64,000 nt of DNA from an uncultured Gemmatimonadales bacterium (GCA_963783385.1 CAWANJ010000009.1:704001-768000); one strand, 5' to 3'. Counted from the stretch's first letter, positions 42,311-50,433 are shown. Made by a program: numbers and translations. Notes: a model not told the origin generated them from the sequence alone.

Positions 42311-43894
42311 TTGCTGCCCGCGACCCACAGGGAGGTGCCTCTGCTCGCCAAGCTGCTTCGACGCAAGCCGATCCCCGAACGGGCGGAAGACGCCCTCGAG
42401 ACCGACCTCAAGCGCACGCTGGGCAAGTGGCAGCTGACCGCGCTCGGCGTGGGCGCCATCATCGGCGCCGGGATCTTCTCGGCCGCCGGCACGGCCGTCG
42501 CGGGAGGGGCCGATCACCTGGGCGCCGGTCCGGCGCTGGTCGTCTCCTACATCGGCGTGGCCATGGCCTGCGGGTTCGCGGCCCTGTGCTACGCCGAGTT
42601 CGCGGCCATGATTCCCGAGTCGGGGAGTGCCTACACCTACGCCTACTCGACCCTGGGCGAGATCGTGGCGTGGATCATCGGCTGGGACCTCATCATCGAG
42701 TACGCGGTCGGCAACATCGCCGTGGCGGTGAGCTGGTCGGGCTACTTCCAGCAGTTCCTGCGCGGCTTCGGCATGGCGCTGCCCGAATGGATGGCCACCG
42801 ACCCGATCACGGCCAACAAGGCGGCGCACACGGTGGCGCAGGCGACGCAGGCGGACACGCTCTCGTCGGTCGCCCCCCACATCGTGCGGGCCGCACAGTC
42901 GCTCTCCGAGGCGCCGCACCTCCTGGGGCTCCCGATCGTGGTCAACGTTCCCGCGGTCATGATCGTGGCGCTCATCACCTGGATCCTGGTCGTCGGGATC
43001 CGGGAGAGCTCGTGGTTCAACGTGGTGATGGTGGTCATCAAGCTCGCCATCCTCGGCTTCTTCATCGTGGCCGGGGCCTTCTACGTCCGACCGGCCAACT
43101 GGACACCCTTCGCCCCCAACGGGCTGCAGGGAATCTGGACCGGCGCGGCGCTCATCTTCTTCGCTTACATCGGCTTCGACGCCGTGTCGACCGCGGCCGA
43201 GGAGACGAAGCACCCGCAGACGGACATGCCGTTCGCGATGATCGCCTCCCTGATCGTCACCTCGATCCTGTACATCGCCGTGACCCTGGTCCTGACGGGA
43301 CTGGTGCCCTGGACCCATCTGGGGACGGCCGAGCCGCTGGCCACGGCGTTCAGCGAGCGCGGCCTCAACATGGCGGCCGGCATCATCTCCGTGGGAGCCC
43401 TCGCCGCCACCACCTCGGTGCTGCTGGTGTTCCAGCTGGGGCAGCCGCGCATCCTGTTTTCCATGGCGCGGGACGGCCTCCTGCCGCCCGTGGTGGCGAA
43501 GGTGCACAAGAAGCACCGTACGCCCTACGTGGCCACGATCATGACCGGGATCTTCGTGGCGTTCTTCGCGGCCTTCATGCCGATCGCCGAGATCATCGAG
43601 CTCACCAACATCGGCACCCTGTTCGCCTTCGTGCTGGTGGCCATCGGGATCATCGTGCTCCGCCGGCTGGAGCCTGACCGGGAGCGACCCTTCAAGACCC
43701 CGTGGGTGCCCTTCGTGCCGCTGGTGGCGATCCTCGCCTGCCTGGGCCTCATGCTGGGGCTGCCGCTCCTGACCTGGATCCGGTTCGGCATCTGGCTCCT
43801 GGTGGGACTGGCGTTCTACTATCTGTACGGGCGCAAGCACAGCGTCCTGCGCCGCCCGGACCGGGAGGCGGCCGCGGCGGGCGGCGGCGAGTAG
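42311..43894 (+). CDS. APC family amino acid permease
   Basis: GAIIGAGIF, CYAEFA, GSAYTY and FAYIGFD. The real start may be GTG ~42335 after GGAGG. Confidence 0.93.
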   Translation: MLPATHREVPLLAKLLRRKPIPERAEDALETDLKRTLGKWQLTALGVGAIIGAGIFSAAGTAVAGGADHLGAGPALVVSYIGVAMACGFAALCYAEFAAMIPESGSAYTYAYSTLGEIVAWIIGWDLIIEYAVGNIAVAVSWSGYFQQFLRGFGMALPEWMATDPITANKAAHTVAQATQADTLSSVAPHIVRAAQSLSEAPHLLGLPIVVNVPAVMIVALITWILVVGIRESSWFNVVMVVIKLAILGFFIVAGAFYVRPANWTPFAPNGLQGIWTGAALIFFAYIGFDAVSTAAEETKHPQTDMPFAMIASLIVTSILYIAVTLVLTGLVPWTHLGTAEPLATAFSERGLNMAAGIISVGALAATTSVLLVFQLGQPRILFSMARDGLLPPVVAKVHKKHRTPYVATIMTGIFVAFFAAFMPIAEIIELTNIGTLFAFVLVAIGIIVLRRLEPDRERPFKTPWVPFVPLVAILACLGLMLGLPLLTWIRFGIWLLVGLAFYYLYGRKHSVLRRPDREAAAAGGGE

Positions 43895-45075: not shown

Positions 45076-46410
45076 GCCCGGCCCGCGAGACCTTCGGGTC
45101 CCGGCTCGGGATGCTGGCCACCATGATCGGGGTGGCCGTGGGGCTCGGGAACGTGTGGCGCTTCCCGTACATGGTGGGGCGCTACGGCGGGGCGGCGTTC
45201 GTGCTCCTCTACGTGGTGCTGGCCGCGGCCGTGGGCGTGCCGGGGCTGATGGCCGAGTGGTCGCTGGGGCGGGCCACGCGGCGCGGGCCGCTGGGGGCGT
45301 TCGAGCGGGCCGGACTCCCGGGCGGACGCGTTCGTCGGCTGGCTCCTGTTCCTGGTCGTCCTCACCGCGCTCGGCTACTACACGAACGCCATCGGGTGGG
45401 TGGCCTGCTACGCCCTCGGCCAGCTCCTCGTCCCCCTGGGGCGGCCTCTGGACCCCTCCGCCATTCTCCCGCCCGCTTCCGGCTTCTCCGGCCGGGCCTT
45501 CGCGCTGCAGCTCACCTTCACGGCCCTCCTCCTCCTGGCCCAGGGCGCGGTGATCCGGAAGGGGCTCCGGGCCGGGATCGAGAAGGCGAGCCGGGTGCTG
45601 ACGCCCCTCGTGTTCGTTTCCCTGCTCGTCCTCCTCGTCCGCTCCCTCACCCTGCCGGGCGCGGGGGCCGGCGCTGCGCTGGTACCTGGCCTTCCACCCC
45701 TCGCGACGTGACCCCGTCCGTGCTGGTGGCGGCGCTGGGCCAGGTGGTGTTCTCGCTGGCGCTGGGCGGCACGATGATGGTCGTGTACGGCTCCTACCTG
45801 GCCGAGGGGGAGGCGCTCAAGGGCGACGCCATCCTCACGGTGGTGGGCGACACGGCGGCCGGCTTCCTGGCGGGTCTCGCCATCTTCCCGGCCGTGTTCG
45901 CGTTCGGTCTCGAGCCCGGCAGCGGCCCCGGCCTCCTGTTCGCCACCCTGCCCCGCGTCTTCGCCCACATCCCGGCCGGCTGGGCCTTCGGCGTCCTGTT
46001 CTTCGGGGCCTCGCTGGGCGCCGCCTTCCTGTCGGGCATCGCCGCCTTCGAGGTGCTGGCCGCCGGCCTCGGCGACGCCCTCGGGATGCCGCGGCGGAAG
46101 GCCGTGAACCTCCTCCTGGGGCTGCTGCCTCCTGCTCGCCCTGCCGCCCATGGTGAACCTGAAGGTCTTCGTCCCCTGGGACCTCACCTTCGGCTCGGGC
46201 GGGCAGACGGTGGGCGCGCTGCTCGCGGCCATCACCGTGGGCTGGGCCCTCCGCCGCGGCGCCCTGCTCGAGCAGATCGGCGGCGACCACCCGGGCCGGC
46301 TGGACCGCTTCCTGGTCGCCTGGCTACGCTGGGTGCTGCCCGCGGCCATCCTGACGGCGGGAGCGTGGTGGGTGGCGTCGGACGTGCTGGGGGTGGCGGG
46401 AGGGGCGTAG
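45072..46410 (+). CDS. Sodium-dependent transporter (NSS/SNF family), four +1 frameshifts
   Basis: AVGLGNVWRFPY, GIEKASR, GQVVFSL and GPGLLF. Shifts near 45330, 45673, 45700 and 46125. Span is 1335+4 nt. Confidence 0.88.
46294..46397 (+). repeat. Direct repeat, left copy (3' end of the NSS transporter gene)
   Basis: 104 nt with 3 mismatches to 50245..50348; weaker similarity extends about 40 nt upstream. Confidence 0.95.
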
Positions 46411-46456
46411 TCGACCGCGCATCGGCATGGCCTCCGGGTGCGGAGCCGGCACCACG

Positions 46457-47648
46457 CTAGCCACTCGATCCTGGCGTGACGATCCGAGGCTTCAGAATCT
46501 CGGCTCGGGTGTCCCCCGCGCGGGTTTCTGACATGCGGTACAGGAGCAGACCGTCGCCGCAGACGGGAGCGACGACCGCATCGAATCAATGCCGCGCCAT
46601 CACGCGGACTCGGGACCCATGGCTGACGTCCAGGACCTCGACCACCGTGTCGAATGTCCGACGGGTCCAGGCGGGTGAGCTGAAGTGGAGCGAGTCGGGA
46701 CTCCAGTGCGCATCAGGTACCACCGAAAACGTCCAGAGCCGGCGGTCGGTGCCCTCCGTCAGGTGCTCGAGGTACACGAGCGGAGGCAAATCCGTGTACA
46801 TCCTCTCCAGCCGGCCCGGCGTGACCTCCTGACGGTCGGGAAACCAGGCCGCATGGCGTGCGTAGCTTCCCTCGACCTCACCCGCATCGCTCCAGTGGTA
46901 GATCTCGTATCTCCACACGCTGGCGGTCCAGAGGTCACCGTGGCGCCCGCCCGCGACGGTCCACCAGTCGAGATCGCCGAACTGGTGGTTGTGAGTTCCG
47001 AATTGTGCTATCCGGGTCCCGGCATCGTCGAGCACACGGAACAGCGGCCGCTCGTTGTCAGACGCCGCCGGTTCGGTCGTGAGGAGCCATCGACCCCCAC
47101 CGAGACGGCTCCATCCGCTCCCACCGCCGGGCAGTCGAAAGGAACCCAGAAACCGGCCTTCTGCCGTGACTGTGACGGCTCGCTGATTGAACCGGTCGAA
47201 CACTTCGAGCGTATCTCCGTGCATGACCGTGAGGCCGAGCTGATTGCCGAACTCTGTGGGCCCCTGCCCTGGGCGACCCACCGCCCTCAGCCACATACCG
47301 TCGCTGCCGTAGACCGCCAGCTGACCGCCCCCGACAAGATCACCGACCACGAAATCCCCGCTCACCAAATGTGCGATCGAGCACAGAGTTCCGAGGGGCG
47401 CATCAGCGGAGATCGAGGCAGGATCGTTCGCCCCTCCGAGCCGGGCGATCACCTGGATCTCGAGAATGGCATGTTGGACAGTTCGAGTCTGCGGCGATTG
47501 AGCTCTGTGACACATTTTCGTTACTTCGGTGCCGTGGACGCGATCCGGTGGCGGAGCAGGCCGCGAGAACGGCGACCAGCATCGTGAGGAGGGGGCCTCC
47601 TCTCGACGGCGTCCAGCGACGGTTTCGTGTAGGAACCTCACGGCGCAA
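46457..47648 (-). pseudogene. 6-bladed beta-propeller lipoprotein with a frameshift (~47466) and an in-frame TGA (46586-46588)
   Basis: Lipobox LAAC and CPTC in ORF 47403..48008, then GRPGQGPTEF and DTVVEVLD in ORF 46586..47656. The frame continues 42 codons past the TGA to a TAG at 46457. Start uncertain. Confidence 0.7.
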
Positions 47649-47827
47649 ATCAGCACACTCAGTTAGCGCCTGGTGAGACTCATCCTCCATGGCGCAGGCC
47701 ATGAAGCGAGTTACCGTGGACCGGTCTGAACATAGACGCCGGCAGTATCCGAGCACTGCAGTCGCCCGAGATACGGACGGACTGCCCAGAGCCGCTCCCA
47801 GACCGGGCTGCACCGTGCCATGCGGTT

Positions 47828-48508
47828 CTATCCGGCCCCATGCTTCTGAAGAGCCTGGCGAACATCCTCGACCAACATGGACTCCGCGGGCAGTCCCGTC
47901 TCGACAATGCGTCCGATAACGAACGTCGGCGTTCCTCGAACTCCCAACCTTCTGCCCGCCTGCATGTCCCTCTCCACGCGGGGCATCGGCGCTGCATCTC
48001 TTAGGCACTCCATGAACCGTTCCGAGTCGAGCACGCCGGCTCTACGGGACAGTTCCACCCAGTTCAGGAGTCCGAGCGAGTCTTGCTTGGAGTACGCTAC
48101 GTGAAGGAACGCCGCAAATCGGCCCTCGTCTGCAGCGCATTCCGACGCCACAGCCGCTTCGAGTGCCTGCGGGTGAACCTCTGACAGGGGATAGTGCCTG
48201 AATCTCACTGCCACGTGTCCGCCGAACACGGTGGTCACAGAATCCAGGAGCCCTTCGGCCCGCGCACAATACGGGCATTCCATGTCTGCGAACTCCACGA
48301 CGTGAACACGGGCCGTCTTGGATCCGATGACGTGCCCCCCATTATCGAGTTCCACTGCAAGTTTCCGGTCAATCGTACGGACGGGGGAGCGTGAGGTCTC
48401 GATCGGTTGCGTACTCAATTCACGTCGAACTACGAGGGCCGTGACGGTCACTGCGCAGCCTGCAAGAACCCCGAGCGCCGCATTCTGAAAAAGATCGGAT
48501 GCCTTCAC
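47828..48508 (-). CDS. DsbA/BdbD-type thiol-disulfide oxidoreductase, membrane-anchored
   Basis: N-terminal TM segment, EFADMECPYC active site, FRHYPL, a second Cys pair (ECAA/MECL) and the GTPT cis-Pro loop. Confidence 0.92.
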   Translation of the reverse strand: MKASDLFQNAALGVLAGCAVTVTALVVRRELSTQPIETSRSPVRTIDRKLAVELDNGGHVIGSKTARVHVVEFADMECPYCARAEGLLDSVTTVFGGHVAVRFRHYPLSEVHPQALEAAVASECAADEGRFAAFLHVAYSKQDSLGLLNWVELSRRAGVLDSERFMECLRDAAPMPRVERDMQAGRRLGVRGTPTFVIGRIVETGLPAESMLVEDVRQALQKHGAG

Positions 48509-48636
48509 GATCCAATTTCATCCGGGGGCTCAAGCGTAGTGTCCAGACTTCACCTTCAGATCTGCCAAAGGACCTGATGCCGGATCCCTTTGCACCTTGC
48601 CTGGGGTGCGCCCGCTGCGTTGGAGGTAGCAAGACC

Positions 48637-48855
48637 TCAGAAACACTGACCAGGCATGGGTGACCCGGGGCCAGCTGAGCACTTAGAACACACGGGGTCC
48701 GGACTGCAGTCAGAATTCGAATGGCAGGCCTGGTCGCAGACCAGTGAATTCGTCCTGGTCGAATTCGAATTGGCATACGCCGGTGTTGAAATGTATACCG
48801 CGCCACCGAAGGTCACAATGGCTGCGATCAACCCAGCGATGAGTCGCTTGTTCAT
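48637..48855 (-). CDS. Secreted 6-Cys peptide (72-aa precursor, ~44-aa mature), knottin-like
   Basis: AGGAG SD; Sec signal MNKRLIAGLIAAIVTFGGAVYISTPAYA; mature part NSNSTRTNSLVCDQACHSNSDCSPDPVCSKCSAGPGSPMPGQCF. Confidence 0.85.
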   Translation of the reverse strand: MNKRLIAGLIAAIVTFGGAVYISTPAYANSNSTRTNSLVCDQACHSNSDCSPDPVCSKCSAGPGSPMPGQCF

Positions 48856-48895
48856 GACCTTCTCCTGGCTACGGTGGACTACCACCTCTAGTATT

Positions 48896-48925
48896 ATTTT
48901 AAAAGATCGTTCGACGCCGTGTCAA
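48896..48925 (-). promoter_or_regulatory. Near-consensus sigma70 promoter for the peptide gene
   Basis: TTGACA-N18-TAAAAT, 40 nt upstream of the peptide ATG. Confidence 0.7.
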
Positions 48926-49132
48926 GAATTCAGGGCCAGGACCTTCCCCAGAGACTCCATCTCAGATTCTGTAACCCGTTGATGATCAGTCGCTTGTAGG
49001 CATCTGCGAGTGAAACGGGCCCGCTCGAGCGGAGAATGGGGAACCTTCGTGCAGATGAAAGCGGGCCCCCACTCGCACAAGTTGTTGGTGTCCATCGGCA
49101 AGGAAGCCGACCACCTGGCGAGGGGGACCCGG

Positions 49133-50192
49133 ATGGAGAGTGCGCGGCTCGCGGGGAAGGTGCAAGGTCAGATCCTGCGATTCTCGGGGAAACTTTCGGC
49201 CGGGCTGCCCAGAGATGGCCCGCCGGGCGGTGGGGGAGATCCTCTACGGGATGCAGGCCCGCGGCTCGGTTCGCCTTTCGGAGATCGGACGGGCCCTGGA
49301 GGAAGAGACGGTCCTGAAGACGGTGATCGAGCGGCTGGGCCGACAGCTCGGATGGCCCGAGCTTCGGCGCCGGGTGCGGGAGAACCTCCTGGCCCTCGGG
49401 ACGCCGAAGGTAGGCGAGCAAACGCTGCTGGTCACCGACCTGACCGACATCAGCAAGGCCTACGCTCAGAAGATGGAGCACCTGGCCAGGGTGTACGACG
49501 GCCGGGCGGACGAGATCACCGACGGCTACGAGTGCGTGGAGGTGCTGGCGGCCGAGGCGGGTTCGCCCGACGTGGTGCCCCTGTATCAGGAGCTCTACAG
49601 TTCGGAGGCGCCGGAGTTTGTGAGCGAGAACCGGAAGGTGCTCAAGGCGGTGCGGGCGGTGAGCCGCGCCACCGAGGGCCGGGGGATCTGGGTGATCGAC
49701 CGGGGCGGAGACCGCCGGAACATCACCCCGCGGCTGGAGCGAGGCCAGGACTTTCTGATCCGGCTCTAGGGCCGGCGGCACCTCGAGTGGAGGCGCTCGG
49801 CTCTGAGCGCCCGGGAGCTGGCGACCCGCACACGCCGCCCTTTCGAGGAGACGGTCGTCAAGGAAGAGGGCGCCGAGGAGAGAGCCTATGTCCTGCGCTT
49901 CGGCTCCACCCCGGTGCGCTTTCCCGGCTCGGCGCGCCGACTCTGGCTGGTCGTCGTGGACGGACGGGGAGCGAAGCCGCTTCTGCTGCTGACCACCCTG
50001 CCCGCCGGCCGGTCCAGGAGGCGCACCTGGCGGATCGTCCAGAGCTACTTGACCCGCTGGCGGGTGGAGGAGACGATCCGCTTCCTCAAGCAGAGCTACG
50101 ACGTGGAGGACATCCGGCGGCTCAAGTACGACCGGCTCCGGGCCATGGCCACGCTCGTGATGGCCGCCGGTCACTTCGCCACCTTCGGCTAG
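49133..50192 (+). pseudogene. DDE transposase (IS4-like) remnant
   Basis: SVRLSEIGRAL, LVTDLTDISK, WVIDRGGD and YLTRWRVEETIRFLK motifs. Frameshift near 49210, in-frame TAG at 49767, 3' end truncated. The IS left end is probably near 48931 (CAGGGCCAGG). Confidence 0.85.
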
Positions 50193-50244
50193 GGCGGACA
50201 GACCGCCGGCGGCCCTCCTGCGCCAGCTCGGGGGCGGGGCCCCC

Positions 50245-50348
50245 GGCCGGCTGGACCGCTTCCTGGTCGCCTGGCTGCGCTGGGTGCTGCCCGCGGCCAT
50301 CCTGGCGGCGGGGGCGTGGTGGGTGGCGTCGGACGTGCTGGGGGTGGC
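50245..50348 (+). repeat. Direct repeat, right copy (orphan 3' fragment of the NSS gene, ending at TAG 50358)
   Basis: Translates as GRLDRFLVAWLRWVLPAAILAAGAWWVASDVLGVAGA*, matching the transporter C-terminus. Confidence 0.95.
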
Positions 50349-50433
50349 CGGCGCCTAGACTCGACGGGTCCGGCGGCGGAGACTCGCGGCCGCGCCGCTG
50401 GCGACCGGTGGCCAAAATGAAAGGAGACGGACC

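Follow-up and report, generated by a model that had tools for sequence, protein, structure and literature searches.

Gene content of the cassette

Within a 64,000-nucleotide (nt) stretch of DNA from an uncultured Gemmatimonadales bacterium (GCA_963783385.1 CAWANJ010000009.1:704001-768000; the window below), the minus strand between positions 46457 and 48925 contains, in order, a promoter-like site, an open reading frame (ORF) predicted to encode a small Cys-rich peptide, a 128-nt spacer, a gene for a DsbA-like oxidoreductase, a 179-nt spacer, and a gene for a beta-propeller lipoprotein. A first-pass annotation of the sequence had proposed these genes as a dedicated three-gene system read in one direction, and all 4 elements (promoter-like site, peptide, DsbA, and propeller) were indeed found on the same strand (Table 1). 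The peptide ORF with its signal-peptide-like start and six Cys, the CPYC DsbA, and a promoter candidate were likewise recovered as described there. The window cassette is termed type A, its genome (9 contigs, 92% complete) G000, and the congeneric genomes G001, G002, and G003.

The peptide ORF is preceded by AGGAGAAGG, and a Shine-Dalgarno sequence is present. The precursor comprises a signal-peptide-like N terminus of ~28 amino acids (aa) ending in AYA and a mature part of ~44 aa, with Cys spacing 3-5-5-2-11. The product of the second gene matched two Pfam families above their cutoffs, Thioredoxin_4 (PF13462; E value 6.5e-22, 78.9 bits, cutoff 23.2) and DSBA (PF01323; 2.5e-13, 50.7 bits, cutoff 25.6). 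Its CxxC motif and N-terminal hydrophobic segment were kept in two other cassette types of the genus (CPFC in type B and CEPC in type C), and the enzyme is probably anchored on the periplasmic side of the membrane.

The product of the third gene has the propeller body and N-terminal CPTC motif that the first-pass annotation had reported, together with a lipobox, but these do not form one open frame in the window sequence. The frame that encodes the signal peptide and CPTC motif (47403-47648) differs from that of the propeller body (46586-47482 and onward), the frameshift being due to one extra base at 47465; in addition, an in-frame TGA (46586-46588) stands where homologs have Arg and removes the last ~42 codons, a conserved tail. 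Over the region compared (46300-49100), contigs of all 4 public runs (2 studies, soil and sediment), one of which may be the source sample, omitted one base at 47465 and had G for A at 46588, so that TGA became CGA. With these readings, the propeller frame was open for 413 codons, and 376 aa aligned at 52% identity to an intact paralog. The run contigs also contained synonymous changes at 47368 and 47906 and an Asn-to-Asp change in DsbA at 48343. At each of the five differing positions (46588, 47368, 47465, 47906, and 48343), the window had A/T or an extra T/A and the runs had G, C, or nothing. Classification of the window propeller as a pseudogene was dropped because both lesions were absent from the contigs of the 4 runs; the lesions fit either an assembly error or AT-biased decay in the strain.

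An AlphaFold2 (AF2) model of the type B propeller, built on an 8-sequence alignment, was all-beta (pLDDT 82, pTM 0.82), and its top Foldseek matches were NHL domains (Thin, Brat, TRIM71, and TRIM2; E value ~1e-10). On the basis of this model, the propeller is assigned a predicted NHL-type six-bladed fold, the blade count being taken from the matched structures and not from the model coordinates. Conserved Cys were found in blade 1, in the CxxC preceding it, and in the C-terminal tail. Pfam matches of the propeller were all below threshold (DUF5128, 17.2 and 12.8 bits, cutoff 22.9; NHL, 12.5 bits, cutoff 20), the broken ORF of the window matched neither NHL nor DUF5128, and no NCBIfam family reached its threshold for the propeller. 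PADLOC assigned 0 families to the peptide, DsbA, and propeller. Lipoboxes read from the translations were LAAC (types A and B), STAC (type C), and GAC (type D, a remnant described below). In the type B propeller gene (L005 8867-9104, G000:C2), the signal peptide is in frame, and ATG, GTG, and TTG are absent upstream, with an ATG in another frame; the same was seen in G003. The third member of this propeller subfamily in G000 (G000:C2:67547-68694, L030 4547-5694) is split in two frames and is 40 to 44% identical to that of type A; DsbA and peptide genes are absent nearby.

The promoter-like site was unique within 46300-49200 (0.6 ± 0.8 sites expected from shuffles), and TTGACA was also present 5' of the type B and type C peptide genes. 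The three genes would probably be transcribed as one message. The hairpin between peptide and dsbA that had been reported does exist, but the attenuator role given to it, favoring peptide mRNA over enzyme mRNA, was rejected as unsupported: its stability was within the range of shuffled sequences (z score of -1.43; 16 of 200 shuffles folded equally well), and no terminator-like site was found near the cassette in the same scan as the promoter. The whole peptide-dsbA spacer (128 to 131 nt) folded worse than shuffles (z score of +1.62; 194 of 200 shuffles at least as stable), and the spacers of types B and C were no more stable than shuffles (z scores of -1.18 and -0.97).

Table 1. Features of the three-gene cassette and of its surroundings, in positions of the window
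Feature	Position	Strand	Details
Six-Cys mini-protein precursor gene	48637..48855	-	72 aa; ATG at 48855, stop at 48637
Membrane-anchored DsbA-like oxidoreductase gene	47828..48508	-	226 aa; GTG start, N-terminal hydrophobic anchor, CPYC
NHL-type six-bladed beta-propeller lipoprotein gene (predicted fold)	46457..47648	-	Candidate TTG start at 47648; lipobox LAAC; CPTC just before blade 1
Sigma-70-like promoter candidate	48896..48925	-	TTGACA-18-TAAAAT, 11/12 matches; ~40 nt 5' of the peptide start codon
Inverted repeat CAAAGG/CCTTTG (hairpin)	48563..48594	-	-12.3 kcal/mol; in the peptide-dsbA spacer
Left direct-repeat copy	46261..46400	+	3' end of Na+-dependent transporter gene; left border of low-GC variable locus
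Right direct-repeat copy	50212..50351	+	Relic of transporter 3' end, followed by histidine-phosphatase gene
Broken IS4/IS701-like transposase remnant	49140..50192	+	Between cassette and right repeat; frame split 49140-49769 / 49914-50192

Recurrence of the three-gene arrangement

The order peptide, DsbA, propeller was found in 8 diverged locus types, so that the Cys-rich peptide recurs beside homologous dsbA and propeller genes, the recurrence on which the first-pass annotation had staked its proposal. Type B lies in the same genome, between recX and a carbonic-anhydrase gene, in DNA of lower G+C content, and has the same gene order; compared with the window, its peptide is 52 to 56%, its DsbA 50%, and its propeller 54% identical. 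Type C was found in G002 and G003 and is more distant from type A (peptide 31 to 42%, DsbA 30%, and propeller 43% identical); G003 also contains type B, split over two contigs. Outside the genus, the trio with the same peptide family was present in G089, G404, G198, G213, and G005. Identities between cassette types were 21 to 60%. Metagenome contigs carrying near-identical types B and C were not counted as independent evidence.

Sequence comparison within the peptide family showed that all six Cys are kept, with spacing 3/4-5-3/5/7-2-9 to 12 and a G-x-C near the C terminus. The type B paralog in the same genome matched the window peptide with an E value of 8.5e-21 and 52% identity. Between the type B peptide genes of G000 and G003, 7 codons differ; the 4 nonsynonymous differences are all in the signal peptide and the 3 synonymous differences are all in the mature part, which, with 0 nonsynonymous changes against 3 synonymous ones, appears to be under constraint. 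In the peptides of the G259 group (L083 2673-2888, P0014, and P0015), a seventh Cys in the mature part makes the number odd; these loci are without DsbA.

The peptide family is new and small. No Pfam or NCBIfam family reached its cutoff for the peptide. The first peptide profile had 2 matches among 1.84 billion representatives, its own family only, and a 7-sequence profile found 8 proteins among 5.8 billion database proteins, all of them nameless. In a six-frame search with a 6-sequence profile, the family was detected in 5 of 401 Gemmatimonadota genomes, a count that is a lower bound because neither this profile nor the first one detected three carriers (G005, G213, and G246), which were found via neighboring genes. 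When the first profile (3 sequences) was applied to the 401 genomes, 6 weak matches besides G000 were rejected as out of frame or within other genes. A PDB sequence search with the peptide profile returned only a zinc-knuckle protein (E value 0.55), the Protein Atlas returned only unnamed clusters for the window peptide (0.77 to 0.81, below lead level), and an AF2 model of the peptide on a 3-sequence alignment was unusable (pLDDT 51.5).

Linkage of the propeller subfamily with peptide and DsbA genes

The broad propeller family had matches in 54 of 61 relatives, sometimes in tandem arrays, and the full-length subfamily to which the window propeller belongs was found in 102 of 401 genomes (E value ≤1e-25). 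Among the best 29 subfamily loci, 5 contained the peptide and 3 contained DsbA, those 3 being among the 5, whereas DsbA was absent from all 24 peptide-less loci. DsbA thus follows the peptide rather than the propeller.

In each of the peptide-family loci found (10 genomes), the peptide gene is directly upstream of a propeller gene of one clade. In a maximum-likelihood tree of 30 propeller rows, from which L087 was left out as too short, G198 as truncated, and L095 for lack of a tblastn match, a single 16-row clade (support 100/100) contained all 8 peptide-linked rows, and peptide linkage was seen in 0 of the 14 remaining rows. Linkage was patchy inside the clade: well-supported branches require at least 3 changes, and the best tree has 6. 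Distant propeller paralogs were rejected as a general partner of such peptides, as 0 of 20 stretches around them contained DsbA and 1 of 20 (in G016) contained Cys-rich signal-peptide ORFs. In the latter (G016:C64; L054 7300-7512 and 9121-9384), two small ORFs flank the distant paralog and have lipoprotein-like signal peptides and adjacent Cys (CC; 6-5-0-3 type); DsbA is absent nearby.

Cassette-type DsbA genes and a DsbA-propeller fusion

G000 contains 5 Thioredoxin_4 matches, of which the window DsbA is one and another adjoins the only VKOR gene of the genome; no DsbB was found in this 92%-complete genome by family search. Because a housekeeping DsbA is thus present beside the only VKOR, the cassette DsbAs are extra copies, and this VKOR presumably reoxidizes the cassette enzyme. 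A profile of three cassette DsbAs had matches in 371 of 401 genomes (E value ≤1e-15), often several per genome, a tally that takes in housekeeping enzymes and four unpublished genomes.

The best 29 cassette-type DsbA loci were examined with 1.5 kb on both sides (103 kb) for ORFs of 45 to 110 aa with a signal-peptide-like start, ≥6 Cys, and ≤8% Arg after residue 20. Such ORFs were present at 16 of the 29 loci (18 ORFs in 103 kb), compared with 2 ORFs in 220 kb around the distant propeller paralogs (1 of 20 stretches). By eye, a credible peptide gene was recognized at 19 of the 29 loci. A propeller gene was present at 16, both genes at 10, and neither at 4. Gene order varied among these loci and Cys frameworks differed widely, and the number of Cys, as read from the sequences, was even in 27 of 28 mature parts beside cassette-type DsbAs. 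The window itself contained one false positive of the filter (42742-43020, minus strand, 92 codons), which lies inside a longer opposite-strand ORF, has no convincing signal peptide, and is probably spurious.

The signal peptide of the window precursor (48771-48855; hydrophobic run, GG, and PAxA-like end) resembles those at L123, L131, L132, L120, and L124, whose Cys frameworks differ greatly, and GG was present at positions 11 to 26 in 10 of 28 peptides beside cassette-type DsbAs. A conserved signal peptide may therefore have been joined to a hypervariable mature part.

In G403, a single frame of 646 aa encodes a transmembrane anchor, a DsbA domain (CPFC; Thioredoxin_4, 1.3e-16), and a propeller (subfamily hidden Markov model, 2.4e-9; DUF5128, 0.013), and an ORF predicted to encode an eight-Cys peptide with a signal peptide is located 24 nt upstream of this fusion. 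Separately, frames of 446 to 612 codons with one or two C-terminal DsbA-like domains were seen at L147, L148, L150, L151, L152 (2037-3872; G017:C26), and L153, the domains at L152 being two in tandem.

A putative oxidative-folding module and alternative explanations

The recurrent linkage, the occurrence of DsbA with the peptide, and the DsbA-propeller fusion point to an oxidative-folding module. The window locus is accordingly read, with about an even chance of the reading being right, as one member of a conserved Gemmatimonadota module in which a dedicated DsbA and a propeller serve the oxidative folding of an exported disulfide-rich mini-protein. In such a module, the Sec pathway would export the 72-aa precursor and the signal peptide would be removed. 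The membrane-anchored CPYC DsbA paralog would oxidize the six Cys to three disulfides and would be reoxidized by the single VKOR. The propeller lipoprotein would be a physical partner of DsbA that holds or chaperones the substrate, giving a two-part foldase with a layout like that of thioredoxin-NHL proteins such as NHLRC2. As far as sequence can indicate, the fusion favors a chaperone or maturation role for the propeller over a receptor or immunity role. The RiPP-like layout (ribosomally synthesized and posttranslationally modified peptide) seen in the first-pass annotation applies loosely: disulfide formation by DsbA would be the only modification, as had been suggested, but the precursor has a Sec-type signal peptide instead of a leader, and no RiPP maturase family was found in the Pfam and NCBIfam scans of the three genes.

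Several observations weigh against this reading. Most of the best subfamily loci (24 of 29) are peptide-less, and the subfamily is present in 102 of 401 genomes compared with 5 of 401 for the peptide (the latter a lower bound), so that the propeller exists independently of the peptide. In G259 and G246, the peptide gene stands directly before the propeller gene and an adjacent DsbA gene is absent; DsbA would therefore be dispensable in some lineages. In G403, the fused propeller comes from a more distant group of propellers, and the accompanying peptide is of a different family. A CxxC ahead of blade 1 is a trait of the propeller subfamily (21 of 28 loci), irrespective of the peptide, and the propeller has 2 to 4 conserved Cys of its own, which DsbA could serve instead. 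Separate promoters could be accommodated in the spacers, which are 128 and 179 nt long. Finally, rank correlations of pairwise identities among 7 cassettes for peptide, DsbA, and propeller (Spearman 0.29, 0.39, and 0.08), whose cassette pairs are not independent, were not significant, and coevolution of the three genes is therefore not demonstrated.

The presence of several diverged cassettes per genome, together with their setting in variable loci (see below), suggests a role of the mature peptide in interactions with other cells. The peptide might act in antagonism, inhibition, or signaling. The same features are what an effector-immunity or ligand-receptor pair would predict, in which the peptide is a secreted antagonist or signal, DsbA does no more than fold it, the propeller confers immunity or acts as a receptor, and peptide-less propellers are orphan immunity or receptor genes. 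Types A and B and a broken third propeller occur in G000, types B and C in G003, and type C with a decayed type D in G002; G001, of the same genus, has no cassette; the cassettes lie in low-GC variable loci; and the propeller family is large and sometimes tandem, with patchy peptide linkage inside its clade. The fusion in G403, however, is hard to square with an immunity or receptor role for the propeller, the cassette includes no outer-membrane exporter, no antimicrobial or defense family was detected in the peptide family scan or by PADLOC, and codiversification of peptide and propeller is not apparent from the rank correlations. Such a pair is considered unlikely, though it deserves more weight than the explanations that follow. 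If DsbA instead served the propeller specifically, in the way that DsbL serves ASST in uropathogenic Escherichia coli, the peptide would be a passenger or an accessory of the propeller. The conserved Cys of the propeller described above, the fusion in G403, and the precedent of the DsbL/DsbI-ASST operon with its essential disulfide (PMC13426309) would agree with this arrangement. The distribution of the genes runs the other way, with the peptide present at 3 of 3 subfamily loci where DsbA adjoins the propeller and DsbA present at 0 of 24 peptide-less loci, and 9 of the 29 best DsbA loci, read from their listing, have a credible peptide and no propeller within the 1.5-kb flanks; arylsulfotransferase families were also absent from the Pfam matches of the propeller at an E value of ≤1. 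A DsbA dedicated to the propeller is thus regarded as distinctly improbable.

Two further explanations concern the peptide itself. Sub-threshold matches to PF02977, the plant knottin-type metallocarboxypeptidase inhibitor, were obtained for the window peptide (E value 0.036, 14.3 bits) and the type B peptide (6.4e-4, 19.9 bits) at model positions 5 to 40 of 46, and P0001 carries a precomputed domain label that likewise points to this inhibitor family. That the peptide is a bacterial homolog of this protease inhibitor is nevertheless very improbable: both scores are below the 25-bit gathering cutoff, the model has matches in just 2 of the 10 family members, the 1 to 6 residues after the last Cys are not conserved, the PDB profile search returned the zinc-knuckle protein as its sole match and no such inhibitor, the peptide profile found only its own family among the 1.84 billion representatives, and the peptide model is unusable. 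Chance adjacency, with a small ORF that is no gene beside unrelated DsbA and propeller neighbors, would draw on the abundance of spurious ORFs in high-GC genomes, of which the filter false positive in the window (42742-43020) is an example. It has almost nothing in its favor once set against the conservation of six Cys and synteny in 10 genomes at 21 to 60% identity, the exclusively synonymous substitutions in the type B mature part, the Shine-Dalgarno sequence and promoter-like site at the ORF, and the eight database proteins in the family.

The oxidative-folding reading might be extended, tentatively and with more doubt than confidence, to a general system for hypervariable disulfide-rich exported mini-proteins in Gemmatimonadota and perhaps the wider Fibrobacteres-Chlorobi-Bacteroidetes (FCB) group. 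A two-part foldase of DsbA and NHL propeller, sometimes fused, would fold cognate Sec-exported peptides of many Cys frameworks, the peptides would act in antagonism or communication between cells, and the window cassette would represent one family. Such a system would be a bacterial counterpart of the venom-peptide repertoires of animals or the knottin repertoires of plants. Bacteria have yielded few disulfide-rich mini-proteins, a kind of molecule valued for its stability as a scaffold (knottins, defensins, and conotoxins). Should DsbA and the propeller together act as a substrate-specific foldase, they would represent a new class of dedicated machinery for oxidative folding, of practical use in producing such peptides; part of the very large, uncharacterized group of propeller lipoproteins of Gemmatimonadota, and possibly of Bacteroidota, would then also gain a function. 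The cassette would also offer a first handle on the secreted effectors of a widespread, little-studied soil phylum.

Comparison with characterized systems

The separate parts of the cassette are known already, but the literature searched yielded no report of the three together with Sec-type precursors that have many different Cys frameworks. This agrees with the view of the first-pass annotation that no system of such composition has been characterized; the searches were topical. According to PMC6606811, the sublancin 168 operon (BdbA/BdbB) and the enterocin F4-9 locus are peptide loci with their own thiol-disulfide oxidoreductase. Like the cassette, they place a small exported peptide beside a dedicated DsbA/Bdb-type enzyme that is additional to the housekeeping enzymes. 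The activity of these peptides is described there as disulfide dependent, whereas no antimicrobial activity is known for the window peptide. The two systems also differ from the cassette in belonging to Firmicutes and in having ABC exporters, glycosyltransferases, and small immunity proteins, as far as that text goes; the cassette has a Sec-type signal peptide, no exporter, and a six-bladed propeller lipoprotein as a constant third partner.

The DsbL/DsbI-ASST operon of uropathogenic E. coli likewise combines a specialized DsbA paralog with a periplasmic six-bladed propeller protein, an enzyme needing a disulfide (PMC13426309). On the same source, ASST has a mass of 64 kDa, a catalytic His, and Pfam families of its own, none of which the cassette propeller matches, and the operon as described there includes the partner DsbI and no Cys-rich peptide gene, whereas the cassette is without DsbI and has only the distant VKOR. 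In NHLRC2, a thioredoxin-like domain and a six-bladed NHL propeller form a cleft that is the proposed ligand site (PMC6107167). NHLRC2 and SOQ1 join a thioredoxin-like domain to an NHL propeller; the G403 fusion has a DsbA-type redox domain and a propeller in one chain, and Foldseek places the type B propeller among NHL domains. The cassette differs from NHLRC2 and SOQ1 in its DsbA-type redox domain (Thioredoxin_4/DSBA), membrane anchor, oxidizing periplasmic location, separate genes in the window, and attached Cys-rich peptide gene.

For the peptide, the potato-type carboxypeptidase A inhibitor (PF02977) shares six Cys, a similar span, and the weak match of types A and B; the scores below cutoff, the 8 of 10 members without a match, and the absence of a conserved C-terminal tail set the peptide apart. 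PMC6339383 describes a tick inhibitor, of no relevance to the peptide.

Six-bladed propeller lipoproteins of Bacteroidales (DUF5128 and DUF4221) neighbor small exported peptides ("NVEALA"). NVEALA was not named in the papers listed by one of the topical searches. The Bacteroides proteins BF0058 (PDB 4RAA) and BVU_1028 (PDB 3S9J) matched the type B propeller model with TM scores of 0.55 to 0.60 over ~400 columns, and the DUF5128 similarity of the propeller is weak, below Pfam cutoffs.

Genomic setting of the cassette

The cassette lies within a 3.95-kb stretch of low G+C content (0.52 to 0.70, compared with ~0.75). Two direct-repeat copies of 140 nt, 89% identical to each other, flank it, and the similarity extends to 46185-46216 and 50180-50211, for 140 to 170 nt in all. 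The transposase remnant matched DDE_Tnp_1 (6.9e-6) on 49914-50192, with IS4/IS701 models below cutoff.

At the same site, the 3' end of the transporter gene and the phosphatase gene are 166 nt apart in G001, ~1.4 kb apart in G003, and ~4 kb apart in G002 (G002:C16), where the interval contains a decayed cassette of a fourth type (D). This remnant consists of a frameshifted propeller gene and the C-terminal half only of a DsbA gene, the peptide gene being absent. Since the site is empty, occupied by 1.4 kb, or filled by a decayed cassette in the congeners, it is a variable locus.

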